From assembly GCA_041485125.1 (NCBI GenBank), contig JBGPIT010000003.1, positions 1-46,221 on the forward strand: DNA of 46,221 nt. Direction: 5' to 3'. Positions 3,408-29,553 of the stretch are shown here, piece after piece (positions within the stretch are counted from its first letter, which is position 1; each line of letters begins with the position of its first letter). Origin of the DNA: Candidatus Binatia bacterium. Lineage in GTDB: Bacteria > Desulfobacterota > Binatia > UTPRO1. The translations under genes and the position numbers were made by a program. The notes beneath the pieces were generated by a model, which saw nothing but the letters and a program-made list of their open reading frames with translations, made no database searches and was not told the DNA's origin.

Positions 3408-6266
3408 TCAGTCGTCGAGCGCGGCCTGCGCCGCGGCGAGCCGCGCGATCGGCACGCGGTACGGAGAGCACGACACGTAGTCGAGGCCAACCTTGTGACA
3501 GAACACGACCGAGCTCGGCTCGCCGCCGTGCTCGCCGCAGATGCCGATCTTGAGGCCGGCACGGGCGGCGCGGCCTTTCTCGACCGCGATGCGGACGAGC
3601 TGGCCGATGCCGTCCTGATCGAGGACGGCGAAGGGGTCGGCGGGCAGGATGCCGCGCTCGACGTAGGCAGGGAGGAACGTGTTCGAGTCGTCGCGCGACA
3701 GGCCGAAGCCCATTTGCGTCAGATCGTTGGTGCCGAACGAGAAGAAGTCCGCTTCGGTCGCGATCTCGCCGGCGGTGAGCGCGGCGCGCGGCACCTCGAT
3801 CATGGTGCCGATGGTGTAGGGAACGCGCGCGCCGGTGTCGCGGATGATCTGCTCGCACAGCTCTCGCGCCTGCCGGCGGAGGATGCGCAGCTCCTCGACG
3901 TGACCGACGAGCGGAATCATGATCTCGGGGCGCACCTGGACGCGCTCGGCGGCGAGTGTGCACGCGGCTTCCATGATCGCGCGCACCTGCATCAGGTAGA
4001 TCTCGGGATACATGATGCCCAATCGGCAGCCGCGCATGCCCAGCATGGGGTTGACCTCGGCGAGCGCGTCGCGGCGGGCCCGTAGCTCCGCCGGATCGAC
4101 GCCGATCTTGCGCGCGAGATCGACGACGTCCTCGTCGCCGTGCGGCAGGAACTCGTGCAGCGGCGGGTCGAGCAAGCGGATGTTGACCGGCAGGCCGGCC
4201 ATTGCGCGGAAGATCTCGAGGAAGTCGCCGCGTTGCATGGGCAGGAGCTTCGCGAGCGCGCGCTCGCGGCCCGCCGTGTCGCGCGCCAGGATCATCTCGC
4301 GGACGGCGTCGATGCGCTCCGGATCGAAGAACATGTGCTCGGTGCGACAGAGCCCGATGCCTTCGGCGCCGAAGCGGCGCGCGACCGCCGCGTCCTGCGG
4401 CGTGTCGGCATTGGCGCGCACCTTGAGGCGGCGGGTCTTGTCGGCCCAGGCCATGAGGGTCGCGAAGTCGCCGCTCTCGCCCTGCCGCGGCACCGTCGGC
4501 ACGCGGCCGCGGAAGACCTCGCCGGTCGAGCCGTCGAGCGTGATCCAGTCGCCGCGGCCGATCCGCGCGGCGCCGACGTTGAAGACGCCCTCGTCGTAGC
4601 GGATGTCGAGCGCGGCGCAGCCGGCGACGCAGGTCTTGCCCATGCCGCGCGCCACGACCGCCGCGTGCGAGGCCTGACCGCCGCGCGCGGTGAGGATGCC
4701 CTCGGCGACCGTCATGCCGTGGATGTCCTCGGGCGAAGTCTCGACGCGGACGAGGATCACCTTGCGACCTGCGCGTACGGCGTCCTGCGCCGCATCGGCG
4801 CTGAAGACGACCTCGCCGCTCGCCGCGCCGGGCGACGCCGGAATGCCCTTGGCGAGGAGCTCTTTCTCGGCGGACGGATCGAGCGTCGGATGGAGGAGCT
4901 GGTCGATCGAGCCGGCCTCGACGCGCCTGAGCGCGGTCGCGCGGTCGATGACCCGCTCGCGTACCATGTCGACCGCGACCTTCACGGCGGCGAACGCGGT
5001 GCGCTTGCCGTTCCGCGTCTGCAGCATCCAGAGCCGGTCGCGCTCGATCGTGAACTCGAGATCCTGCATGTCGCGGTAGTGGCGCTCGAGCTGGCGCGCG
5101 ATCTTCTCCAGCTGCTTGTACGCCGGCGGCATCAGCTCCTCGAGCGACGGGAAGCGCTGCGCGCGCTCCTGTTCGCTCATGCCCTGCGCCCGCGCGTGCG
5201 CGATCGAGGCCTCGCGGCGGAGCTGCTGCGGCATGCGGATCCCGGCGACGACGTCCTCGCCCTGCGCGTTGCGTAGAAAATCGCCGTACAGCGCGTTCTC
5301 ACCGGTTGCCGGATCGCGCGAGAAGGCGACACCGGTCGCGCAGTCGTCGCCGAGGTTGCCGAAGACCATCGCCTGCACGTTCACCGCCGTGCCCCACGCT
5401 TCCGGGATGTTGTAGTGCTTGCGGTAGGTGATCGCGCGCGCGTTGTTCCACGAGCCGAAGACCGCGCCGATCGCGCCCCAGAGCTGCTCCTGCGGATCGC
5501 TCGGGAACGTCACGCCGAGGCGGCTCTGGATCAGGCCTTTGAACTGGGCGACGAGCGTGCGGAGATCGTCCTCGCGCAGATCGGCGTCGCTCTCGACGCC
5601 GCGCGTGCGCTTCATGGTCTCGAGGATCTCCTCGAACGGATCCTGTTCGTCGTGCTCCGGCTTCAAGCCCAGGACCACGTCGCCGTACATCTGGACGAAA
5701 CGTCGGTACGAGTCCCACGCGAAGCGCGGATTGCCGGAGACCTGCGCGAGCCCCTCCACGGTCTCGTCGTTGAGGCCGAGGTTCAGCACCGTGTCCATCA
5801 TCCCCGGCATCGACGCCCGGGCGCCGGAGCGGACGGAGACGAGGAGCGGGTTCTTGGGATCGCCGAACTTGCGGCCGACGATCTGCTCGATGCGGGCGAG
5901 GTTGTCGGCGACGTGTTTCTTCAGCGCCGTCGGATAGCTCCGACCGTGCGCGGTGTAGTACGTGCACACCTCGGTCGAGATGGTGAAGCCGGGTGGCACC
6001 GGCAGACCGAGACCCGCCATCTCCGCCAGGTTCGCGCCCTTGCCGCCGAGGAGGTTCTTCATCTCCGCGCGGCCGTCGGCCTGACCGGCGGAGAAGAAGT
6101 AGACGTACTTGCCCGCGCGTGCGGCAGCCGCGCGTGGCTTGCTGCTGGACCGCTTTGCGGTGATCACGCGCGACTTCGCTTTGGCGCGCGTCGACTTCGC
6201 GCGCACCTTCGGCGCCGTGCCCCGCGACCGCTTCCGCCCCGCCCCTCGACCTCGTACCGTCGCCAC
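3408..6266 (-). CDS. ppdK: Pyruvate, phosphate dikinase with a basic N-terminal extension
   Basis: [39 protein letters not shown] phospho-His motif, [21 protein letters not shown] and GICGEHGG. Confidence 0.97.
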
Positions 6267-6268
6267 GC

Positions 6269-7621
6269 TCAGCTCACGCTCCCGCCCGCGGCGGCGACCG
6301 GCGCCGGCATGCTCGCCGGTGACAGACGCGCCCGCAGCTCCAAAATCAGGTTGTCGATCGCGAGCCGCACCTGCTGCATCGAGTCGCGGTCGCGCAAGGT
6401 CACCGTGCCGTCCTGCATGGTCTGATGATCGACCGTGATCGCGAACGGCGTGCCGATCTCGTCCTGGCGCCGGTAGCGGCGGCCGATCGCGCCCGCCTGG
6501 TCGTAGGTGACGGCGAAGTGCTGCTTCAGCACGTCGCGGATCTCGAGCGCCTTCTCCGGCTGGCCCGCCTTCCGCAGCAGCGGGAAGACGGCGACCTTGA
6601 TCGGTGCGAGGCGCGGATCAATACGCAGCACCACGCGCTCCTCGCCGTCGGCGACGTCCTCGTCGTAGGCGTCGACCAGGAACGCCAGCAGCGGACGGCC
6701 GACGCCGGCGGACGGCTCGATCACGTACGGCACGAAGCGCTCGCGGGTCTCGTCGTCGAAGTAGGAGAGATCCTTGCCGCTGTACTCGGAGTGGCGCTTC
6801 AGATCGAAGTCGGCGCGATTGGCGATGCCCTCGAGCTCCGACCAGCCGAAGGGAAACTCGTACTCGACGTCGGCGCAGCCTTTGGCGTAGTGCGCGAGCT
6901 CGTCGGAGCCGTGCTCGCGCAGACGCAGGCGCTCGCGGCGGATCCCGTAGCGCTGGTACCAGGCGAAGCGCTCCGCTTTCCAGAACTCGTGCCAGCGCTG
7001 GTCGTCGCCGGGCTTCACGAAGAACTCGATCTCCATCTGCTCGAACTCACGCGTCCGGAAGAGGAAGTTGCCGGGGGTGATCTCGTTGCGGAACGACTTG
7101 CCGATCTGGCCGATGCCGAAGGGCAGCTTGAGCCGCGACGCGTTCAGCACGTTCTGGAAGTTGACGAAGATGCCCTGCGCCGTCTCCGGCCGGAGGTAGA
7201 CCGTGCTCGCGGTGTCCTCGACTGGACCCATGAACGTCCGAAACATCAAGTTGAACTTGCGAGAGTCGGTGAGCTCACCGCCGCATGCGGGACAGCGCTC
7301 GCCCGAGAGCTGGTCGGCGCGGAAGCGCTGCTTGCACGACTTGCAGTCGACGAGCGGGTCGGTGAAGCCCTCGATGTGCCCCGACGCCTCCCACACGCGC
7401 GGGTGCATGAGGATCGAGCTGTCGAGGCCGACCATGTCCTCGCGCGACGTGATGTTGTCGCGCCACCACGCCTCGGTGATGTTCTTCTTGAGCTCGATGC
7501 CGAGCGGCCCGTAGTCCCAGCAGCTCGCGAGACCGCCGTAGATCTCGCTCGATTGGTAGACGAAGCCCCGCCGCTTACAGAGGCTGGTGATCTTCTCCAT
7601 GGTGACGGGACGTGCGGTCAT
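6269..7621 (-). CDS. glyQS: Glycine--tRNA ligase, alpha2 homodimeric type
   Basis: [57 protein letters not shown] and the anticodon domain [14 protein letters not shown]. Start is 7621 or 7600. Confidence 0.96.
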
Positions 7622-7786
7622 GAGGCGAGCCAGAGTCGTTATCACCCGAGGTATGAGGGGTCAATTTATCGTGCCCGCGCGCGAGCATACGACGTCCCGC
7701 GCCGCCGCGTCCGACGCATCTTGGACACAGCGGCACCGATGCGACGGTAGGAAGTCGTCGCGGCGCGTCTGAGCGGCCGAGGACGG

Positions 7787-7802
7787 AGGCATGAGGTTTG
7801 CT
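7787..7802 (+). promoter_or_regulatory. Putative sigma54 (-24/-12) promoter of the histidine kinase gene
   Basis: aGGCATGaggtTTGCT has exact GG-N10-GC spacing and is close to the TGGCACG-N4-TTGCW consensus. Confidence 0.55.
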
Positions 7803-7815
7803 CGCATTCCGGCGA

Positions 7816-9875
7816 ATGGGATCGACGCGCTTCCCGGCCACCGCCGTCGATGCCGCCGCGGCTGCCGTCACGCTCCGCACAGCGACCGAAGACGGTCCGG
7901 CGAAGGCCGGCGAGAGCGGACGCGCCGCGCTCTTCGAAACCGTCTTTCGGGATTCGCCCGACGGGATCGTCGTCGTCGACGCGATCGTCGGGACGATCAT
8001 CGAGTGCAACGGCGCGGTCCGCCAGTTCCTCGGCTACGAGCCGGAGCGCTTGCTCGGCGCGCGCTTCGATCCGCTCTTCGCGGAGGCCGCGGTCGACGAG
8101 TTGCCGCTCGTCGAGCGGGTGCGTTTGCACGGCGGCGTCTTCGAGGAGCGCGACCTGCGCCGCATCGACGGCTCGCGCTGCGCGATGCGCCTCCGCACCG
8201 CGAGCGCGCGGTGGGACGACCACCCGGTCGTCATCATCACCTTGCGCGACGTACGCGAGCGCCGCCGCGCGGAGGCGGCACGCCGATCCGCGGAGGCGAA
8301 GTACCGCCGCATCTTCGAGCAGGCGGTCGAGGGCATTTTCCAAACCACGCCCGACGGGCGGTACGTGGCCGCCAACCCGGCGCTCGCCCGCATCTACGGC
8401 TACGATTCCGCCGACGAGCTCATGGTGCAGCTGACCGACATCGCCGGGCAGCTCTACGTCGACCCGACGCGACGGACCGCGTTCCGCCGCCTGCTCGACG
8501 AGTCGGACGTCGTGCGCGATTTCGAGTCGGAGGTCTATCGCCGCGACGGCAGCGTCACCTGGATCTCGGAGAACGCCCGTGCGGTGCGTGACGCCGGCGG
8601 CACGCTGCGCAACTACGAAGGCACCGTCGTCGACGTCTCGGAGCGCAAGCACGCGGAGGAGGCGCGGCGGGCCGAGGCCGAGGTGGCGCACGCCTTGGCG
8701 CTCGCCGGACGTGAGCTGATCTCCTCGATCGACTCGCCGGCGATCTTCGACCGGCTGTGCGCACTCACCGCGGAGGTGCTGGCCTGCGATTGGACGAACG
8801 CCTGGATGTGGGACGCCAAGCAGGAGCTCTACGTCGCGGTCGCGAGCGGAGGACGTCCGCCCGACGGCGCGCGCGCGGCGCGGCTGACGATGCCGCGCGC
8901 CGGCTTTGCGGATTTGCTCCAGCGTCTCGAGCCCGACGAGATCGCGATCGTCGACGCGACTACGGCAGACGTGCTGGGATCGTCGCTCCGTACGCTGCAG
9001 CGCGACTGCTCGAGCGCGCTCTACTTCGCCGTCCGTCGCGGTGGGGTGTGCGTCGGGCGTGCTCATGGCCGCCTATCGCCGCGGTAGCGACCCGTTCAGC
9101 GCCGGCCACCAGCGCATCGCGCGCGGCCTTGCCCATCTCGCGTCGGTTGCGCTCGAGCACGCCCGCGTCCTCGAGGAGCTCGCGCGCGCGAGCCGGCTCA
9201 AGTCGGAGTTCGTCGCCACGATCTCCCACGAGCTGCGCACGCCGCTCAACATCATCATCGGCTACAACGATCTGCTGCGCGACGACTGCGGCGCGGCCCT
9301 CGATCCCGAGCAGGCGGAGATGCTGGCGCGCATCGGAGCGACCGCCCGTCAGCTCGCCGCGCTCATCAACGCGACGCTCGACTTGAGCCGCCTCGAGAGC
9401 GGCGCGCTGCGCGTCGATCTCGGCGCCGTCCCGCTAGGACCTGGTCCGCCAGCTCGAGCTCGAGACGCACGAGCTGGCGCGCGAGAAGCCGGCGGTCGCG
9501 GTCCGCTGGCGCCTCGCCGACGTCGTCGTGATCCATACCGATCCGGCGAAGCTCAAGATCATCCTGAAAAATCTGATCGACAACGCGGTGAAGTTCACGG
9601 AACGCGGCGCGGTGACGATCAGCGTCGAGCCGCGTCTCGAGGGGATCGAGTTCGCCGTCGCCGATACCGGCATCGGCATCGAGCCGCGGGCGCTGTCGTA
9701 CATATTCGAGGCGTTTCGCCAGGGCGACGCCTCGACGACCCGGCGGCACGACGGCGTCGGGCTCGGCCTTCACGTCGTGCAGCGCTTCACCGAGCTGCTC
9801 GATGGCACGGTGACCGTGACGAGCACGCCTTGTGTCGGCTCGACGTTCCGCGTCTGGCTTCCGCTCCGCACCTAG
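7816..9875 (+). pseudogene. PAS-PAS-GAF sensor histidine kinase with two +1 frameshifts (pseudogene or sequencing errors)
   Basis: PAS/GAF in ORF 7798-9087, H-box SHELRTPLN in ORF 8906-10039, and N/G boxes (NLIDNAVKFT, DTGIGI, GVGLGL) in ORF 9528-9875. Frame switches at ~9056 and ~9437. Confidence 0.85.
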
Positions 9876-10038
9876 TGTCGCGTTTCGGAAATCCCAGGCA
9901 CGGGCGGGCGTCGAGCCGCCCCGCTGGCAAGGCGCGCGACCGAGGCATAGTCGCGTGCTATGCCGCAGGGAGCGCAACGCAGCCAGCGGGGATGGATTGG
10001 CGGCCGGACGTGCCTGCGATTTCCGAGACGCGACACTA
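9873..10038. mobile_element. MITE-like non-autonomous element, 166 bp
   Basis: Terminal inverted repeats 9873-9902 and 10009-10038 match at 28/30 nt and are bounded by TA. Nested IRs at 9919-9928/9982-9991 and 9944-9950/9958-9964. No transposase. Confidence 0.75.
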
Positions 10039-10064
10039 ATGTCCCGGCCCGGCCGACCGGTCGC

Positions 10065-10913
10065 CTACAGAGTGTCGAGCAGCCGCTCCGACGCGAGTGG
10101 CGTACTCAACGTCGCCGAGAGGAAGCCGCGCACGAGAATGCGCGCCTCGGCGGCGACGCCGGGCGCGAGAAAGAACTCGCTGCCGTCCGCCGTGTGCAGC
10201 GGCGTCGATTGCAGCTCGCGCAGGCGACGCAGCGTGTGCGCCGAGGCGACGTAGGTGCGGCCGTCGCCGCGGCACGCGCGGCACGACACGCCGCCGCGCG
10301 TCGGATGCGCGAAGCCCGACGCGTCGGGCGCGAGGACGACGCCGCAGCGGGTGCAGCGATCGAGGACCGCCTCGTAGCCGGTGGATCTCAGCAGTCGGAG
10401 CTCGAAGGCGCGCAAGATCCCCGGCCACGCGCCGCCGTTCACGGTCGATTCGCACACCATGCCGCCGCCATCGAGCCGTGCGCCGGCGGGATCGGCGCTC
10501 GCGGGCCGTGAGCGATCGAGCAACGCGAGGGTCTCGCGGACGAGATCGTAGATCTCGGCGCCCGCTTCCTGGCCGCGTACCAATCGGTCGGTGAGCTCGA
10601 GGACGTAGCTCGCGTGCGCGAACTTCGTCAGGTCGCGCGCGAACGTATGGTAGGCGTCGAGGAGCTCGCAGGCGTTGATGAAGGCGAGGTCGCTGCTGCC
10701 GCGCTCGCGCAATCGCACGTTCACGTGGGTGAACGGCTCGAGCACGTTGACGAAGCGGCGCTTCGAGCGTTTCGCGCCTTTCGCGATGCCGCTCAGCTTG
10801 CCGAGGTCGCGCGTCAGGAAGGTGACGATCTTGTCGGACTCGCCGAACGCGCGGGCGCGGATCACGATCGCGGGCGTGACGGTCTCCCGCGGCGGGACCA
10901 GCGAACGAGGCAC
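10065..10913 (-). CDS. recO: DNA repair protein RecO
   Basis: GESDKIVTFLTRDLGKLSGIAKGAKRSKRRF, FELRLL and a C4 Zn finger (CTRC...CRAC). GTG start at 10913 is approximate. Confidence 0.93.
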   Translation of the reverse strand: MPRSLVPPRETVTPAIVIRARAFGESDKIVTFLTRDLGKLSGIAKGAKRSKRRFVNVLEPFTHVNVRLRERGSSDLAFINACELLDAYHTFARDLTKFAHASYVLELTDRLVRGQEAGAEIYDLVRETLALLDRSRPASADPAGARLDGGGMVCESTVNGGAWPGILRAFELRLLRSTGYEAVLDRCTRCGVVLAPDASGFAHPTRGGVSCRACRGDGRTYVASAHTLRRLRELQSTPLHTADGSEFFLAPGVAAEARILVRGFLSATLSTPLASERLLDTL

Positions 10914-22392: not shown

Positions 22393-23208
22393 TCAGCGCG
22401 CCGCCGGCTTGGGGCTCGACGCGGCAGCGCTCGCGGCGGGCGGCGGCTCCCACGGAAGGGGCGTCGCGGCGGCGACGCTCGCCGGCGCGAGCAGCTCGGG
22501 TGGGATCGTCGCGTTCTGCGACCAGCGGAGGTGCAGCTTCAGCGTGGCGCTCTCGGGGTAGTTCTGGATCTCGATCGTCGTCGGCCACCACTTCTTCCCG
22601 ATCAGGACGTGGTCGCTGTCGAGGCGGAGCTTGACGAGGTTGTTGAGCGTCTTGGCGTAGAACTGCGTCCGCGACGGGACCTGTTTCTCCTTGTCGATCA
22701 GGTACGCGCGGTAGACGTACGCCGACTCGACGGCGGGATGCATGCCGACGAGGACGGTGTCCGTGCCCTCGTCGGTGATCTGCTGGGTCTTGAAGTCGTC
22801 GGCGATGAACCGGCTCAGGTCCTCGTAGGAGAGCCCGAGCGCGCCGATCGGGGCGCCGATCGGCACCGTCTCGGTCTTCGAGCCGACCTGCTGCATCACC
22901 TTGCGCTCGTTGCCGAGCACCAGCGCGCGCATGGCGGGGTCGCGGATCTGTAAATACCAGCGTGCCTCCTTGCCGGGCGCGAACACCGCGATCGCCTGGA
23001 GCTTGCGCGTCGTCCCTGCGACGTCGACCTCGCCGTCGATGTCGGCACGCATCGCCGTCTGCGGGGTGTTCATGTCCTGCATGGTGAGCAACAGCAGGCG
23101 GAGATTGCCGCCGTCGATCTCGGCCGCCCTCGCCGGCGCGGCAGAGGCGATCGCGAGGAGCACGATCCCGACCAGCCGGTACAGAGTGTTGCTCGAGTTG
23201 ATGATCAT
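22393..23208 (-). CDS. Secreted LolA-like (outer-membrane lipoprotein-sorting family) protein
   Basis: Signal peptide ending APARA, GLSYEDL and LIDKEKQVPSRTQFY resemble the LolA_like family. GGAGG ribosome-binding site. Confidence 0.65.
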   Translation of the reverse strand: MIINSSNTLYRLVGIVLLAIASAAPARAAEIDGGNLRLLLLTMQDMNTPQTAMRADIDGEVDVAGTTRKLQAIAVFAPGKEARWYLQIRDPAMRALVLGNERKVMQQVGSKTETVPIGAPIGALGLSYEDLSRFIADDFKTQQITDEGTDTVLVGMHPAVESAYVYRAYLIDKEKQVPSRTQFYAKTLNNLVKLRLDSDHVLIGKKWWPTTIEIQNYPESATLKLHLRWSQNATIPPELLAPASVAAATPLPWEPPPAASAAASSPKPAAR

Positions 23209-23696
23209 CCGACCTCCAGGGCACCGACCGCGAGCCACCCGCAACGCCGGCACGTTCGGTGCCTCGAACACGGCGCCATCGACGGGGTCGCGGCGCAAGG
23301 GAGCGGTTGCGAGTCGCGCGGAATGGGCGCGACTGTATCTGAATGGGTTCGCGCCTTGTCAAGGTAACGGCGTCCAGTTGGCGCGATCACGCCCTCGCAC
23401 GTCGTCGTCTACCGTACAGTGTCGCCGGCAAGAGGGCCGCACGACGTCCCACGCGACGGATGTTGGTCGGCGCAGCCGCGAGCACCGACGGCGATCGCCG
23501 GCACCTCGGGTAACGCGCCGCAGCGTCGGCAGAATTCAGTTTACAAAAGCAGCCGTCCTGGGTTACAAGCCGCCACGGCTGGACCCCGTCGTTGCCGGCT
23601 TTGCCCACGTGTCAGGCGCGACAATCTCCTCCAGCTAGGTGCCGGTTCCTCATTACAATCACAATCCGCGACTCGCTTGTCCACAGGGAGGATTCG

Positions 23697-25646
23697 ATGA
23701 AACGTCTCGTCGTCTCGACGATCGCCGCGACACTGCTCGCGCCCGCCGTTGCTCTCGCCGCCATCTCATGTCCTGACCGCGCGCCCGCGGCTATCGGCAC
23801 CTCGCTCGACCCCACGGTGGTGAAGTGCCAGCTCACGATCGCCAAGGTCACCTCGAAGTTCGTGCAGACGAAGCTGCAGACGATGGCCAAGTGCCATCTG
23901 AAGCAGCCCGCGGGTGCCTGTCCGATGCTCAAGGACACGCAGAAGATCGAGAAGGACGCGATCAAGGCCGCCGACGCGATCGCCAAGGACTGCGGCGCCG
24001 ATGCCGTTCAATCCGCCCTTCCCAGCTCGTACTCGAGCCTGACCGACGAGGGCGTGATCAGCAGCTGCACGCTGTCGCAGAACAACGCGACCGCCGGGGT
24101 CCTCGACGGCATCCTGCATGGCGTGTCGACGACGTTTCCGGGCCAGCCCAACACGCGCGCCAAGTGCGTGCAGACGATCAGCAAGGCCGGCACCAAGTAC
24201 GCGATCGCGGCTTTGGCGATCGTCAACAAGTGTCTCGCCAGCCAAATGAAAGACGGCACGCTGGGGAACCTGTCGCCGATCTGCGTCGGCTCGTACTCGG
24301 GCGGCGCGTTCGTCCCGCCGACCGATCCCGACGCCGCAGACGGCCTCGCGAAGCTCGCGACCAAGACCCAGGACTCGCTCGCCAAGGATTGCAGTCCCGG
24401 TGAGGGCGGGTTTGGCGCCGGCTTCATCCACTCGATCTTCGCCTGCCAGGGTCCCGTGACCGCCGCCGACGTCCAACAGTGTGTGATCTGCGGCGGCGAG
24501 GACGCGGTCATGAGCCTGGTGAGCGCGCAGCAAGGCGAAACCGGCACGTTCGTCGCCAATGGACCGGTGGGCGCTCTGCAAGCGGCCGTCGACGGCGCGG
24601 CGCCGAACACCAAGTTCCTGATCGGCTCGGGCACGTACGCCGAGCAGGTGCTGCTGCCGTACACGACCGACGGCCTGCAATTCGTCGGCTGCGGCGGCGC
24701 CACCAACAACCGCCCGAAGATCGTGCCCCCGTCGGGTCCCGGCCCGTTCGCGAACGGCTTCACGAACACCTGCACGTCCTTCGATCCGATCATCACGGAG
24801 GCCTGCATCGACGGCGTCGACAACCTGCTCTTCCAGAGCCTCGAGGTGGGGGCGTTCGACGAGAACGGCATCCGCGTGAACGGCTCGAACGGCGTCACCT
24901 TCCGCGACGTCATCGTCGACGGTGGGCTGAACTCGGAGTACGCGGTCTTCCCGGTCCACAGCAACAACGTTCTCGTCGAGACGACGAGCGTGAAGAACGT
25001 GAACGACGCCGGCATCTACGTCGGGCAATCGACGAACATCACGGTGCGTTTCAACCGGGTCGAGCACAACGTCGCCGGCATCGAGATCGAGAACTCGGAG
25101 TTCGCGAACGTCCACAACAATTTCAGCACCAACAACACCGGCGGCCTCCTCGTCTTCAAGCTGCCCGACCCGCCGGTCCAGGTCTCGCACGGCCACGTCA
25201 TCAGCCACAACGTCTCGATCACCAACAACACGACGAACTTCGGCGCCCCCGGCTCGACCGTCGGCGTCATTCCCGACGGGACGGGCTTCCTGGTCTTGTC
25301 GAACGACGACTCGGACTTCCGCTACAACATCGCGACCGGCAACAACTCGTTCGGCTTCGTCTTGATCGACCAAGACGGCGTGAACGCGCTCGCCGGGATG
25401 CCGGTCTTCTCCCCCACCAGCCCCGAGCAGGCGGTCACTGGCAACAAGGTCCGGTTCAACTACTTCCACACCAACGGCGGCGCACCCGACGACACGCCGC
25501 CCAACGACACTGCGGGGCTCTCCGGCGACATCGCGTTCTTCCTGAGCGACCAAAGTGGCGGCAACCACAACAACTGCTTCCTCGGCAACGACGTCGATCA
25601 GTTCGGGTTCCCGAATCTCGGCACCGACTCCGACTGCACTCCCTGA
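23697..25646 (+). CDS. Secreted protein: N-terminal tandem Cys-rich helical domain plus parallel beta-helix domain
   Basis: GGGAGG RBS and Sec signal MKRLVV...AVALA. Two C-x21-C units. Beta-helix motifs YAVFPV, DAGIYVGQS, NVAGIEIENS and NNTGGLLVF resemble the TIGR03805 beta_helix_1 family (from memory). Confidence 0.85.
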   Translation: MKRLVVSTIAATLLAPAVALAAISCPDRAPAAIGTSLDPTVVKCQLTIAKVTSKFVQTKLQTMAKCHLKQPAGACPMLKDTQKIEKDAIKAADAIAKDCGADAVQSALPSSYSSLTDEGVISSCTLSQNNATAGVLDGILHGVSTTFPGQPNTRAKCVQTISKAGTKYAIAALAIVNKCLASQMKDGTLGNLSPICVGSYSGGAFVPPTDPDAADGLAKLATKTQDSLAKDCSPGEGGFGAGFIHSIFACQGPVTAADVQQCVICGGEDAVMSLVSAQQGETGTFVANGPVGALQAAVDGAAPNTKFLIGSGTYAEQVLLPYTTDGLQFVGCGGATNNRPKIVPPSGPGPFANGFTNTCTSFDPIITEACIDGVDNLLFQSLEVGAFDENGIRVNGSNGVTFRDVIVDGGLNSEYAVFPVHSNNVLVETTSVKNVNDAGIYVGQSTNITVRFNRVEHNVAGIEIENSEFANVHNNFSTNNTGGLLVFKLPDPPVQVSHGHVISHNVSITNNTTNFGAPGSTVGVIPDGTGFLVLSNDDSDFRYNIATGNNSFGFVLIDQDGVNALAGMPVFSPTSPEQAVTGNKVRFNYFHTNGGAPDDTPPNDTAGLSGDIAFFLSDQSGGNHNNCFLGNDVDQFGFPNLGTDSDCTP

Positions 25647-25669: not shown

Positions 25670-28099
25670 ATGAACAGACGGTTCTCGATCGAGTCAGCGG
25701 CGCGGCGTCTCCCGCGCCGCCGACTCGTACCGCTCCTCGCCGCCGTCGTGGTGGTGGCGATGGCGTGGTCGCCGGTCGCGGCCTTGCCGTACCCGACGAC
25801 GCGCGAGGACTTCCGTCTGCCGGGAACGCAGCCTCTCACCGTCACCGATCCATTCGCGCTGCCGAGCGCGTGCTCACCGTGTCATAGCAACTACGGCCAG
25901 CCGTCGGTCGAGCCCTTTCGTAACTGGAAGGGCTCGATGATGGCGCATTCCGGCCGCGATCCGCTGATGCTGGCGGCGCTCGCGGTCGCCAACCAAGACC
26001 TGGAGCACTCCGGCGAGACCTGCCTGCGCTGTCACATGCCGAAAGGGTGGCTCGAGGGCCGCTCGACGCCCGAGGACGGCACCGCCATCAACGCCGGCGA
26101 CCGCGAAGGCGTGCAGTGCACCATCTGCCACCGCCTGGTCGATCCGTTCGCCGCTCCCGAGAACCCTCCACAAGATGGTCCGATTCTCGCCGGCCTCTCG
26201 CAGCCGGTGCCGATCCTGAGCTCGGCGATGATGGTCGTCGATCCGCTCGACCGGCTGCGCGGGCCGTTCGACATCGTCGCCGACCTCGGCAGCGATCCGC
26301 ATGCCCCGACGCGTCCGACGCTGGTCTCGCCGTTCCACGAGAGCGCCGAGCTCTGCGGCGTCTGCCACAACGTCGGCAACCCGGCGTTCACCCGCAACAT
26401 GTCGGGGGAGTACGATCTGAACGCGCTCGACACTCCCGGCGATCCGACGCTCGCCTTCCCGGAGCAGTCGACCTACGACGAGTGGGCGGCCAGCACCTAC
26501 GCGGCGACCGGCGTGCTCGCGCCGCAGTTCGGTCGCAACCAGAGCGTCGTCTCGACTTGCCAGAGCTGCCACATGCCCGACGTGTCGGGCCGCGACGCGA
26601 ACGGCGGCGTGACGCGTGACGATGTCCCGCTCCACGAGTTCGTCGGCGGCAACGCGTTCATTCCGAAGATCCTGCCCTTTCACCCGGCCTTCGGCGCCGA
26701 GGTCGACGCGAGCCTGCTGGCGAGCACCGTCGACAAGGCCACCGCGATGCTCCGCCGCGCCGCGAAGCTGAGCCTCGACCTCGCCGGCGGGACGCTCACC
26801 GTCCGCGTCACCAACGAGAGCGGCCACAAGCTCCCGACCGGCTATCCGGACGGCCGGCGCATGTGGCTGCACGTCCGCGCCTTCGACATGAACCGCGCCG
26901 TGGTCTTCGAGTCCGGCCGCTACGTCTTCTCGACCGCCGACCTCGTCGGCTACGGGGCCGCACCGATGGACCCGGGCTACGATCCGTATCTGCACGTGTG
27001 GGAAGCGGTGTACAGCATCAGCCCCGCGCTCGCCGTCACTCTCGGAGTCGCGCCGGGTTCGAGCCAGCATCTCGTGCTCAACAACGTGCGCGAGAAGGAC
27101 AACCGCATTCCGCCGCTCGGCTTCACCAACGCCGCCTACGAGGCGTTCGACGGCGAGCCGGTCGGCGCGAGCTACGCCGACGGCCAGAACTTCGACGAGG
27201 TCGCGTATCCGGTCGGGGCGAACGCGGTGCAGGCCGAGGTCACGCTCTACTACCAGACCGCGTCGCGGGAGTACGTCGACTTCCTGCGCGACGAGAACCT
27301 CACCAACGCCGCCGGCAACATCCTGCACGACCTCTGGGAGGATCACGACAAGTCGACGCCGATCGCGATGGCGCAGGGCTTCTTCGAGGCCGACCGCAGC
27401 GTCGTCAACAACTGCCACAAGACGATCGCGCAGGAAGAGGACCGCTTCGCCAAGAAGTACATGAAGGAGTGGGACAAGTGCTTCGCGACCCGCGTGCGGG
27501 GCCTGACCTGCGACGCGACCGGCCGCGATGCGCGCATCGCCGCCGCGGAGGCGAAGCTGCGCAGCAAGATCGGCGGACCGAAAGACCGCCGCTGTGCCGG
27601 TGCGAACCTGACCCCGGTCACGCTCGGTCACGGCACCTCGTGCCCGGTACCGTGCGCGAGCATCGTCCTCTTCGACATGACCGACCTGGCGTCGTGCTCG
27701 GTCTGCATGACGACGGCACTCGGCGACGCCGCGCTCGACGCCGCCTACGGTGCCGATCCGCCGGCGCTTCCCGCTCCGCTGCCTGCCGGCGCGCGCTCTT
27801 GCCAGAGCAAGCTCGCGAAGGCCGCGACCGGCCTCGCAACCGAATGGACGCGTGCGCTCGGCCGCTGCGAGCAACAGAACCTCGCGAGCGGCGGACCGCC
27901 CGCAAGCTGCGTCCTCGATCCGGAGGGCGCGATCGCGCGCGCGCAAGCGAAGGCGGGAAGCAAGGTCGCGAGCTGCGGCGCTTTCTCGGGGCTCGCCGGA
28001 TGTGGCGCCGCGGGCGCGCTGCCGGCCGTCCAACAGTGCGTGAACGACGCGTTCACCACCGTCGCGCCCGACTACACGCGCGTGGCGTATCCGAGGTGA
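25670..28099 (+). CDS. Secreted pentaheme c-type cytochrome with C-terminal tandem Cys-rich domain (809 aa)
   Basis: Five CxxCH motifs (CSPCH, CLRCH, CTICH, CGVCH, CQSCH), GHKLPTG..RRMWL, a signal peptide and a 14-Cys C-terminal domain. True start at 25670 after GAGG. Confidence 0.9.
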   Translation: MNRRFSIESAARRLPRRRLVPLLAAVVVVAMAWSPVAALPYPTTREDFRLPGTQPLTVTDPFALPSACSPCHSNYGQPSVEPFRNWKGSMMAHSGRDPLMLAALAVANQDLEHSGETCLRCHMPKGWLEGRSTPEDGTAINAGDREGVQCTICHRLVDPFAAPENPPQDGPILAGLSQPVPILSSAMMVVDPLDRLRGPFDIVADLGSDPHAPTRPTLVSPFHESAELCGVCHNVGNPAFTRNMSGEYDLNALDTPGDPTLAFPEQSTYDEWAASTYAATGVLAPQFGRNQSVVSTCQSCHMPDVSGRDANGGVTRDDVPLHEFVGGNAFIPKILPFHPAFGAEVDASLLASTVDKATAMLRRAAKLSLDLAGGTLTVRVTNESGHKLPTGYPDGRRMWLHVRAFDMNRAVVFESGRYVFSTADLVGYGAAPMDPGYDPYLHVWEAVYSISPALAVTLGVAPGSSQHLVLNNVREKDNRIPPLGFTNAAYEAFDGEPVGASYADGQNFDEVAYPVGANAVQAEVTLYYQTASREYVDFLRDENLTNAAGNILHDLWEDHDKSTPIAMAQGFFEADRSVVNNCHKTIAQEEDRFAKKYMKEWDKCFATRVRGLTCDATGRDARIAAAEAKLRSKIGGPKDRRCAGANLTPVTLGHGTSCPVPCASIVLFDMTDLASCSVCMTTALGDAALDAAYGADPPALPAPLPAGARSCQSKLAKAATGLATEWTRALGRCEQQNLASGGPPASCVLDPEGAIARAQAKAGSKVASCGAFSGLAGCGAAGALPAVQQCVNDAFTTVAPDYTRVAYPR

Positions 28100-28101
28100 C
28101 C

Positions 28102-29553
28102 ATGCGAGCGCGACTCCTCACGATCGTCGGCGTCCTCGGTCTCCTGATCGCGCGCGATGCATTCGCGCGCCCGACCTACTTCGCGGTCTTCACCGGCCGC
28201 TACGGTCTGACCAGCGACGATCGCACCTACGCGTGCGGCAACTGCCACTTCCGCTGGACCGGCACCGGCGCGCGCAACCCGTTCGGCACCGCGGTCGAGC
28301 AGCAGCTCTACGTCGGCAAGTCGATCAACCAAGCCCTGCAGGACATCGAGAACGACGACTCCGACGGCGACGGCTTCACCAACGTCGACGAGATCGTGAA
28401 CTTCAAGACGCTGCCCGGCTACTCGTGCGCCAACTTCCAGGACGCGGTCGGCGCGCCCGCCGACTACCACTCGTTCATCACGCCGATGGTCGCCTCGTGT
28501 CTCGAGCCGCTCGACATCCGGATCGCGCCGAGCCAGCTCGGCTTCCTCACCGACGCGGGCGTACCGGAAACCTTGCCGGTGACGGTCTTCAACAACGGCC
28601 AGGACGACCCGATCATCGTGAACGCGTACGGTCTCCTTCCCGGAGCGCATCCCGCCTTCAGCGTCAGCGGGCCGACGGCGCCGTTCGTGATTCCGGTCGG
28701 GCAGAGCGTCGTGCTGAACGTGACGTTTGCGCCGCCGGGAGGGGTCTTCGGGGCGGCGACCTTGCGGGTCTCATCCAACGATCCCGACGAGGCCGACATC
28801 GACGTGCCGATGAACGGCTTCGGCGTCGTCCACGTCCTCGCGCCGGCGGCGGCGCGCGCCGCGTGCCTGCGCGACCTCGACATCGCGTTCCGGCGTTACT
28901 CGAAGAAGCACCTCAAGGCATGGTCGGAGTGCTACCTCGACGAGGTCGCCGGGCTTGCGTGCGACTCCGGCCAGCGTGATCTCGTCATCCAGCAGGCGGC
29001 GCAGAAGCTGCGCGACGCGATCGGCGGCAGCAAAGACCGCCGCTGTACCGCCGCCGGCATCACCCCTTCGCTCCTCGGCTATCCGTCCACCTGCGGCGGC
29101 TCGTGCGGCTCGATCCAGGTGAACAGCATGGGGCGTCTCGTCGACTGCGTCGTCTGCCGCGAGGACGAGGGCATGGCGGACATGCTGCGCGCCGGCATCG
29201 GCACCGCGCCCCCCGACCTGCCGCCGAACACCGTCGGCTCCGCGCGCGCGCGAGCCTGCCAGAAGCAGATCCTCGGTGCGGCGCAGAAGGGCATCGCCGC
29301 GCTCGTGAAGACCCTCGCCCGCTGCGAGATCGCCAACGTGACCGCGTCGACGCCGGTCGATTGCGCGACGACACTGGCGTCGCAGGTCGCCGTCATCAAG
29401 GGCAAAGCGGACGCGCCGCTCGCCTCGTGCGGCGACACCTCGGGCCTCGACGCGTGTCCCTTCGAGCCGCCGAACGATCCGACCTGTCTCGGGCAGAGCG
29501 TCGAGTCGGTCGGCTCGAGCCTGGTCGACGCGACCGTCGGTTTCAACGACTGA
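28102..29553 (+). CDS. Secreted monoheme cytochrome c with Ca-binding DxDxDG loop, Ig-like domain and tandem Cys-rich domain (483 aa)
   Basis: Signal peptide ending DAFA, CGNCH, DSDGDGFTNVDEI, beta-sandwich segment ending SSNDPDE and a 14-Cys C-terminal domain. Starts 2 nt after the previous stop. Confidence 0.85.
   Translation: MRARLLTIVGVLGLLIARDAFARPTYFAVFTGRYGLTSDDRTYACGNCHFRWTGTGARNPFGTAVEQQLYVGKSINQALQDIENDDSDGDGFTNVDEIVNFKTLPGYSCANFQDAVGAPADYHSFITPMVASCLEPLDIRIAPSQLGFLTDAGVPETLPVTVFNNGQDDPIIVNAYGLLPGAHPAFSVSGPTAPFVIPVGQSVVLNVTFAPPGGVFGAATLRVSSNDPDEADIDVPMNGFGVVHVLAPAAARAACLRDLDIAFRRYSKKHLKAWSECYLDEVAGLACDSGQRDLVIQQAAQKLRDAIGGSKDRRCTAAGITPSLLGYPSTCGGSCGSIQVNSMGRLVDCVVCREDEGMADMLRAGIGTAPPDLPPNTVGSARARACQKQILGAAQKGIAALVKTLARCEIANVTASTPVDCATTLASQVAVIKGKADAPLASCGDTSGLDACPFEPPNDPTCLGQSVESVGSSLVDATVGFND

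Follow-up and report, generated by a model that had tools for sequence, protein, structure and literature searches.

Tandem cysteine-rich helical modules on three exported proteins of a Candidatus Binatia bacterium: a probable lineage-specific anchoring tag new to the family libraries searched

What is the cysteine-rich segment that recurs in three adjacent genes of a Candidatus Binatia bacterium, and what does it do for the proteins that carry it? The genes, here called g1, g2 and g3, lie co-directionally on the + strand of a 46,221-nucleotide stretch (contig JBGPIT010000003.1 of assembly GCA_041485125.1; "the window" denotes the whole of this stretch), and each encodes a protein with a signal-peptide-like N-terminus (Table 1). 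An earlier reading of the letters (the original prediction) had described six units of exact C-x21-C spacing in these genes as a possibly undescribed, mobile, disulfide-stapled helical domain acting as a lineage-specific anchoring, sorting or interaction tag. A module of this kind exists. It is homologous in all three genes, helical in confident models, promiscuous in its partners and restricted to one lineage, and it is probably a lineage-specific anchoring tag new to the family libraries searched.

All six C-x21-C strings quoted in the original prediction were found letter for letter in g1, g2 and g3, and two additional pairs were located (g2 C747-C769 and g3 C421-C443). The 14 collinear cysteines ascribed to the C-terminal domains of g2 and g3 fell into the same 14 alignment columns, which were invariant in 29 sequences and in 23 + 23 g2/g3 orthologues from the same genomes; the motif said to be common to both, KLRxxIGGxKDRRC, was recovered as KLRSKIGGPKDRRC and KLRDAIGGSKDRRC. 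Over their last ~235 residues the g2 and g3 domains were 38% identical across 190 aa (E 3e-36). BLASTP linked g1 to g2 and g3 weakly (E about 0.01), and profiles were therefore aligned by hhalign, using for g1 a profile of 13 orthologues with 13 invariant cysteines. The g1 N-terminal domain aligned with the g2 domain collinearly over 199 columns (probability 97.3%, E 1.8e-11) and with alignment A2, which holds 48 modules from the window's own genome (probability 98.5%, E 1.5e-15), so that the g1 units do align with those of g2 and g3 and the g1 domain is homologous. Alignment A2 contained four invariant and two nearly invariant cysteine columns, the C-x21-C pair being two of the invariant four; these two cysteines were present in 48/48 own-genome modules and in 99-100% of 300 near-full modules from 150 library proteins. 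Because the g2 and g3 domains are homologous and the pair is conserved across modules, the C-x21-C pattern, judged from sequence, exceeds chance.

The 23-residue C-x21-C stretch is not itself the repeating unit, as had been supposed; it is only the first helix of a module of ~125-135 aa, which own-genome profile matches often placed in tandem. In g2 and g3, one full module with 8 Cys is followed by one shortened module with 6 Cys. Conserved positions are almost exclusively Cys, Gly and hydrophobic residues. Two subtypes were distinguished. Type A carries CGGxDxxC and CxxC and often forms the mature N-terminus, and g2 and g3 represent a divergent form. Type B has nine profile cysteines plus one from an upstream 'DCP...ADGxG' segment or linker, giving about ten per module. 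This supplier of the tenth cysteine, an acidic segment of the form 'CDNCLDDDGDxLVDRDDxDCP...ADGxGxG' in front of type-B modules, weakly matches NF033662 acid_disulf_rpt (e.g. G000:C66, G000:C406 and P0033-P0039). The mean net charge of the module was +3.1 (78% positive, n=306), and the rest of the carrier proteins was acidic (-4.8 per 100 aa).

The helical nature claimed for the units was borne out by confident AlphaFold2 models. A single module was modelled with a predicted local distance difference test (pLDDT) of 91.4 and a predicted template modelling score (pTM) of 0.80, and showed three helices (2-32, 39-56, 93-116), the second and third joined by a Cys-rich loop. The whole g2 domain reached pLDDT 97.2 and pTM 0.92, with helices at 2-35, 42-59, 96-119, 132-165, 180-193 and 203-232, and the models were all-helical except for one two-residue bridge. 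Helix 1, ~31 residues long, holds both cysteines of C-x21-C, and their spacing of 22 residues corresponds to about 33 A in standard helix geometry, so that they cannot bond each other; the idea of C-x21-C as a disulfide unit was therefore dropped, and in the models each of the two must staple helix 1 to another segment. Across 374 modules, Cys columns 34 and 52 co-occurred (r 0.99), columns 99 and 116 were lost together in five modules, and columns 119 and 123 behaved as alternatives. Cys co-variation and helix topology, and not model coordinates, suggest putative core disulfides between columns 5-74, 27-44 and 99-116, the column correlations being confounded by the subtype split; in the first module of g2, CxxxC and CxxC would form a predicted two-rung disulfide ladder. 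For the whole g2 domain the predicted pairs would be C582-C642, C604-C614, C658-C676 and C662-C679, followed by C711-C769, C733-C747 and C778-C790.

Fold searches with the models returned best Foldseek E values of 0.75 and 0.2, with no match at E<=0.001, and best VIA-align Z scores of 9.1 (1n81_A, root-mean-square deviation 5.0, 160 aligned) and 7.8, where Z under about 13 is uninformative for helical models. The top rows (Pfg27, a cyanophage ejectosome protein, PhoU-like proteins, P-type ATPase helices and helical parts of Cas12) were set aside as generic helical bundles within noise. As far as these models go, the searches neither assign the fold of the module nor prove a new one.

Sequence libraries gave the same picture of an unnamed family. 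At E<=1, neither Pfam-A nor NCBIfam placed a family over the Cys module of g1-g3; Pfam-A placed none over the module in 37 own-genome open reading frames (ORFs) or in 40 + 17 library proteins, and NCBIfam 20.0 none in 27 further proteins. The description 'possibly undescribed' thus held in both libraries, with no known Pfam family covering the module. A PDB sequence search with A2 gave 0 matches, and one with alignment A6 gave a single match, to a SIS domain at E 0.26, which was taken as chance. The nearest ESM Atlas clusters (0.91-0.93) were unnamed 'hypothetical protein' entries without a common Pfam family, labelled Myxococcota or Binatota, and a named-only search of the Atlas gave no usable match. 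In the source annotation, carriers are called 'hypothetical protein' or bear the name of the partner domain. By title or abstract, the literature on cysteine-rich or disulfide domains of Binatota/Binatia and on the GC-type dockerin held nothing relevant. Matches to the anammox S-layer model NF052345 were weak (E 3e-4 to 0.07), lay mostly on acidic repeats and were rejected. Within the libraries searched, the Cys-module family is confirmed as real, large and unnamed.

The extent of the family was measured in the window's own genome by searching a g2 + g3 profile over six-frame ORFs and iterating with HMMER filters off. Successive iterations yielded 14, then 35, then 48 ORFs; the g1 ORF entered at iteration 2 (E 4.3e-13), and at iteration 3 E was <1e-5 for 41 ORFs, among which were g1, g2, g3 and one shadow frame. 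Under default HMMER filters the same g2 + g3 profile found 4 own-genome ORFs, against 14 at E<=0.01 with filters off, because the composition (bias) filter removes this Cys/Ala-rich family. Such loss may explain why the family escaped routine family building. Alignment A2 was then compared with 1.84 billion representative proteins (50%-identity clusters), giving 2098 matches at E<=1e-3, 1103 at E<=1e-10 and 412 at E<=1e-30, counts that were made with default filters and are probably underestimates.

The mobility proposed for the module was plain from its positions and partners. Among the best 150 library proteins, 147 carried two copies and 3 carried four, and the modules were C-terminal in 86, N-terminal in 33, the whole protein in 26 and internal in 5. 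In the own genome the module directly followed the signal peptide in about 15 carriers (e.g. '...AQA|DPVKC'), and about 10 carriers had C-terminal tandem modules behind Pro/Thr-rich, acidic, Cys-containing linkers. In g1 it was N-terminal in all 13 aligned orthologues. Partner domains comprised PKD, Big_2, FG-GAP, DUF11, SBBP and DUF5122 propellers, Laminin_G_3, Beta_helix, Peptidase_S8, RTX repeats, RHS/teneurin YD shell, DUF7453 and GBD_T9SS_assoc. The last of these (PF23759) stood immediately before tandem modules in one own-genome ORF (G000:C95:1-2868, L047) and in library protein P0038; going by the Pfam name alone, this pairing would be a second case of the module where a C-terminal sorting domain (CTD) of the type IX secretion system (T9SS) is expected. 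An extreme Cys-rich secreted protein of 881 codons and 69 Cys, with an N-terminal type-A module and no Pfam match, was also seen in the own genome (G000:C189:1955-4597, L028).

The lineage restriction in the original prediction was examined by genome counts. In a sample of 301 genomes from the window's phylum the module was found in 5, all within the window's class (10 genomes of the sample), and in 0/291 genomes of the phylum outside that class. Across the class it was present in 111/201 genomes (87/164 of high quality); this tally, like the count for family f103, includes one genome flagged unpublished (G473), without which the total is 110/200. Distribution by family was nearly all-or-none, with 13 families carrying the module (f1 18/18, f2 10/10, f102 20/20, f103 13/13, f5 21/25, f105 7/8, f107 5/5, f111 6/6, f104 3/3, f109 2/2, f110 2/2, f100 1/1, f3 2/3) and 7 without it (f4 0/24, f6 0/25, f7 0/13, f106 0/11, f101 0/8, f108 0/2, f112 0/1). 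Records bearing the three-gene operon were titled Candidatus Binatia, UBP10, delta proteobacterium or Deltaproteobacteria, and others Polyangiaceae, Myxococcota or Myxococcales, or Proteobacteria metagenome-assembled genomes (MAGs); these titles fit the remark in the original prediction that similar repeats are common in Binatia-like secreted proteins.

Orthologues of the three genes outside this lineage carry most of the evidence on function. Full-length g2 orthologues (alignment A5) were used as query and gave 80 loci; the g1 core (A9) was queried likewise, and a related-locus search with alignment A1 gave one locus. The g2 core, with five CxxCH motifs (residues 68, 118, 150, 229 and 297) and weak Pfam similarity to Cytochrome_C7 (E 2.8e-5, just below cut-off), C554 and MtrC-like families, is on these motifs and profile similarities a multihaem c-type cytochrome. 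A further 26 clusters related to g2 were full-length or truncated orthologues, all with the Cys domain. The g2 and g3 domains were both present in 22/22 Binatia-type loci (L054-L072, L075, L078, L079), and a g1 orthologue with 1-2 module matches adjoined g2/g3 in 17 of them. No g1 was found within the flank in L062, L065 and L071; L075 and L078 are cut by contig ends. In L073 (about 5454-10787, a long-contig MAG), the operon was split over frames, with module matches in three other ORFs and a shortened g2, a pattern suggestive of frameshift errors or pseudogenes.

The g2 cytochrome core (query residues ~42-568) was conserved, at 37-50% identity, in 57 loci of other phyla, among them Planctomycetota and Phycisphaerae, Eisenbacteria, Chloroflexota, Bacteroidota, Zixibacteria, Krumholzibacteria, Nitrospiraceae, Verrucomicrobia and Ignavibacteria. 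The Cys module was on the core orthologue in 0/57 of these loci. Tails of >=35 aa stood behind the core in 48/57 loci and were classified by NCBIfam at E<=0.01, Pfam agreeing for 13 whole ORFs. The T9SS type A sorting domain TIGR04183 accounted for 13/48 tails (11 at or above cut-off), on orthologues of Bacteroidota, Zixibacteria, Eisenbacteria and Krumholzibacteria; dockerin_GC NF041540 accounted for 9/48 (5 above cut-off), on orthologues of Phycisphaerae and Planctomycetota; and 7/48 matched other models (TSP3/Omp28-like, PorU/PorZ/FlgD-type or tandem-95). Since the core is conserved, carries the module only in Binatia and elsewhere ends, in part of the loci, in T9SS CTDs or dockerins, the module occupies the site of other lineages' sorting or anchoring domains. 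Tails that matched no model, two of them 137 aa long but most 60-95 aa, came chiefly from Planctomycetota or Phycisphaerae (L077, L082, L083, L085, L088, L090-L092, L098, L101, L102, L104, L107, L117, L119, L125, L126, L129, L131); they may, on sequence, be divergent GC-type dockerins or another unnamed C-terminal domain.

A single stop-free ORF spanned a g3-like N-terminal part (haem/TSP3; query 8-155) and, behind it, the g2 core in 22/57 other-phyla loci (L076, L081-L085, L088, L090, L091, L093, L095, L096, L098, L099, L102, L103, L105, L107, L116, L121, L123, L128). These fusions suggest a joint complex of the g2 and g3 products in the window. Only one C-terminal tail is present on such a fusion; Binatia make two polypeptides, and each of them has a Cys domain of its own. 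Relatives of the g1 beta-helix core elsewhere carried the module in 0/78 loci, the median stretch ahead of the core being at most 50 residues, and two Binatia-type loci in the g1-core set did carry it.

These results are best accounted for by a position-independent surface docking or anchoring module, to which we give an even chance. The module would be an extracellular three-helix bundle with a Cys-rich loop, held by 3-5 disulfides and usually present as a tandem pair. A Binatia-type lineage would have added it to many secreted proteins, either right behind the signal peptide or at the C-terminus after Pro/Thr-rich and acidic linkers, and its task, closer to that of a dockerin or S-layer homology (SLH) domain than to that of a cleaved secretion signal, would be to keep exported proteins on the cell surface or a shared scaffold. 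In this operon these would be the beta-helix protein of g1, the multihaem cytochrome of g2 and the small haem partner encoded by g3. Several lines of evidence lead to this reading: the presence of the module on all three operon proteins in one lineage and on dozens of unrelated exported proteins per genome; its position independence, the linkers that precede it and its replacement by T9SS CTDs or dockerins in orthologues, on which the proposed anchoring or sorting role rests by analogy; and the rule of one tag per polypeptide, the fused g3-g2 having one tail and the separate g2 and g3 one domain each. Also in its favour are the homology and confident helical models of the module, its absence from relatives of the g1 core elsewhere and the lack of any T9SS CTD match in the window's genome. 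Basic modules on acidic carriers would be compatible with binding to an anionic envelope polymer.

Several points weigh against such a role. The charge bias is modest and is weak evidence. The positional equivalence with sorting domains is an analogy drawn from one orthologue family, in which 19/48 tails matched no NCBIfam model at E<=0.01 and tails were under 35 aa in 9/57 other-phyla loci. Fragments from short contigs among the library proteins enter the position counts. In five module-less genomes of the class a g2 orthologue was not found with this query, a result uninformative on replacement within the class. No partner, receptor or processing enzyme was identified for the module, and the same distribution would be expected from a pure folding, stability or spacer role.

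A broader version, which we hold only tentatively, sees in the module an address tag belonging to a surface-display system of Binatia-type bacteria that has so far gone unrecognised and has a dedicated receptor or scaffold. If so, dozens of exported proteins per genome would be docked through the disulfide-stapled helical tandem, among them an extracellular multihaem cytochrome complex; the job would be the one done elsewhere by the T9SS CTD with anionic lipopolysaccharide (A-LPS) in Bacteroidota and by GC-type dockerins in Phycisphaerae; and the nearly all-or-none distribution over families would mark gain or loss of a whole system.

Comparison with known systems shows where the likeness ends. 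Like the T9SS type A CTD (TIGR04183 / PF18962 Por_Secre_tail), the module is lineage-specific and appended to many unrelated extracellular proteins, and it takes the same C-terminal site on g2 orthologues. The T9SS CTD, however, is a beta-sandwich of ~70-100 aa, strictly C-terminal and cleaved, whereas the module is Cys-rich, ~125 aa long, usually doubled, all-helical in the models and also N-terminal, as in g1 and about 15 own-genome proteins. TIGR04183 did not match g1-g3, though the same model matches the g2 tails of other phyla. Dockerins are likewise small, duplicated, position-independent and attached to many extracellular proteins, and the GC-type dockerin (NF041540) sits at the same site on g2 orthologues. 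Classical dockerins are Ca-binding EF-hand-like pairs without disulfides, and the NF041540 hidden Markov model (HMM) did not match the module in g1-g3 or the 27 further proteins; dockerins pair with cohesin, whereas no cohesin-like partner is known for the module. SLH domains and the N-terminal region of SbsC that binds secondary cell wall polymer are helical, repeated and terminal on many surface proteins, and their role is the one proposed here. They contain no disulfides; SLH-type anchoring domains gave no sequence match on the module at E<=1 in Pfam, and the structural match to SbsC (Z 5.9, rank 48) was within noise for helical bundles. Repeats of the myxo_disulf_rpt type (TIGR02232, DUF4215 PF13948, acid_disulf_rpt NF033662) occur on the same proteins in the same kinds of organism and are disulfide-rich and extracellular; unlike the module they are ~30-47 aa long, acidic and non-helical. 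Their matches were weak and lay just upstream of type-B modules, beside the module and not on it (P0036 643-671, P0040 58-80 and P0034 242-265, vs modules at 26-151, 100-230 and 285-425).

Among other explanations, a generic structural element without addressing function (a disulfide-stabilised stalk, spacer or self-association domain) is unlikely but fares best. It would fit the conservation of almost nothing but Cys, Gly and hydrophobic residues, the generic bundles returned by fold searches and the tandem duplication seen in 147/150 proteins. A stabiliser, however, would be expected neither to take the place of sorting or anchoring domains in orthologues nor to occur on each of two polypeptides that form one protein elsewhere, and the PT-rich linkers before modules are typical of independently acting binding modules.

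Somewhat less probable still is a sorting signal for a dedicated export or attachment machinery, a counterpart of the T9SS CTD that is perhaps removed or covalently processed. The module does occupy the exact T9SS type A site in g2 orthologues and is C-terminal in 86/150 library proteins; its near all-or-none presence in families is what a system with its own machinery would leave; and PF23759 precedes modules in one own-genome ORF and in P0038, although TIGR04183 had 0 matches in the whole of the window's genome at E<=0.01. Yet the module also stands directly behind signal peptides, as it does in every aligned g1 orthologue, and internally, and at 250-300 aa with 14-20 Cys the domain far exceeds known C-terminal signals. 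Candidate machinery was not found, though no systematic search was made.

A redox-active or metal-binding domain, whose CxxC or free thiols would serve the neighbouring cytochromes, is very improbable. The original prediction had noted a CxxC lacking His in each protein, and CVIC, CSVC and CVVC are all present, at a helix start in g1, g2 and g3, two of the three window carriers being haem proteins. The motif is not a family-wide feature: its second position (column 119) is Cys in only 13% of the 374 modules, the main subtype having Cys at column 123 (C-x6-C), and on this ground membership of the CxxC thiol-disulfide oxidoreductases was rejected. Most carriers are non-redox proteins, Cys counts are even once upstream or linker Cys are included, no conserved His or Met was seen in the module and orthologue alignments, and the joint loss of columns 99 and 116 points to structural pairs. 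That the family has already been described and was merely unreported by the libraries searched, through composition filters or in InterPro member databases, has an equally slight probability, for although the bias filter hides most paralogues (4 at default vs 14), no covering match appeared in Pfam-A (3 + 37 + 40 + 17 proteins) or NCBIfam 20.0 (3 + 27), PDB profiles gave no credible match, ESM Atlas clusters were unnamed and the literature held no relevant description.

The remaining features of the locus are listed in Table 1. The g1 core was matched by TIGR03805 beta_helix_1 at residues 294-606 (E 1.1e-51, NCBIfam) and also by Pfam Beta_helix and NosD. In g3, one CxxCH haem site with a TSP3-like acidic motif is followed by a choice-of-anchor-D/ASH Ig-like domain (choice_anch_D E 8.8e-7 and a weak diheme_GEGP match in NCBIfam; ASH in Pfam). 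The first Cys of g1 (AIS|C) was considered as a lipoprotein Cys and rejected, the -1 residue in orthologues being S, V, T, A or Y and this Cys falling in the same column as the module's conserved upstream 'CP' Cys. The flanks hold unrelated housekeeping genes (LolA_like, ThiE, ThiG, alanine racemase and ABC1 kinase).

Table 1. Positions of the three genes, their Cys domains and C-x21-C stretches, and one neighbouring gene in the window.
Feature	Position	Strand	Description
g1	23697..25646	+	649 aa; signal peptide, N-terminal double Cys-rich helical module, parallel beta-helix domain
g1 N-terminal Cys domain	23769..24566	+	residues 25-290; two modules; 13 Cys invariant in 13 orthologues
g1 first C-x21-C (C44-C66)	23826..23894	+	
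g1 second C-x21-C (C157-C179)	24165..24233	+	
g2	25670..28099	+	809 aa; signal peptide, multihaem c-type cytochrome core (residues ~40-570), C-terminal Cys domain
g2 C-terminal Cys domain	27392..28096	+	residues 575-809; 8-Cys module + 6-Cys module; 14 invariant Cys
g2 first C-x21-C (C582-C604)	27413..27481	+	both ends of helix 1, module 1
g2 second C-x21-C (C711-C733)	27800..27868	+	helix 1 of module 2 (model helix 132-165)
g3	28102..29553	+	483 aa; signal peptide, haem site, Ig-like domain, C-terminal Cys domain
g3 C-terminal Cys domain	28843..29550	+	residues 248-483; 38% identical to g2 domain
g3 first C-x21-C (C255-C277)	28864..28932	+	
g3 second C-x21-C (C386-C408)	29257..29325	+	
LolA_like (PF17131)	22393..23298	-	outer-membrane lipoprotein-sorting type; divergent, upstream of g1

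Binatia abound, uncultured, in soils and sediments, and 'hypothetical' is the annotation given to most of the proteins they export. One model of the module would give a partial annotation, as extracellular, to about 40 proteins here and about 2000 clusters elsewhere, and the case illustrates that routine searches can miss a large Cys/Ala-rich family through the HMMER composition filter. If the module does dock its carriers, it would show how enzymes, adhesins, RHS-type proteins and multihaem cytochromes come to be displayed on the cell surface in this lineage. The g2/g3 pair offers a natural experiment, the same cytochrome bearing a T9SS CTD, a GC-type dockerin or the Cys module depending on phylum; this swap of tails between phyla makes the function of the module directly testable, and an anchoring function, by analogy with the domains it replaces, is plausible and now open to test.

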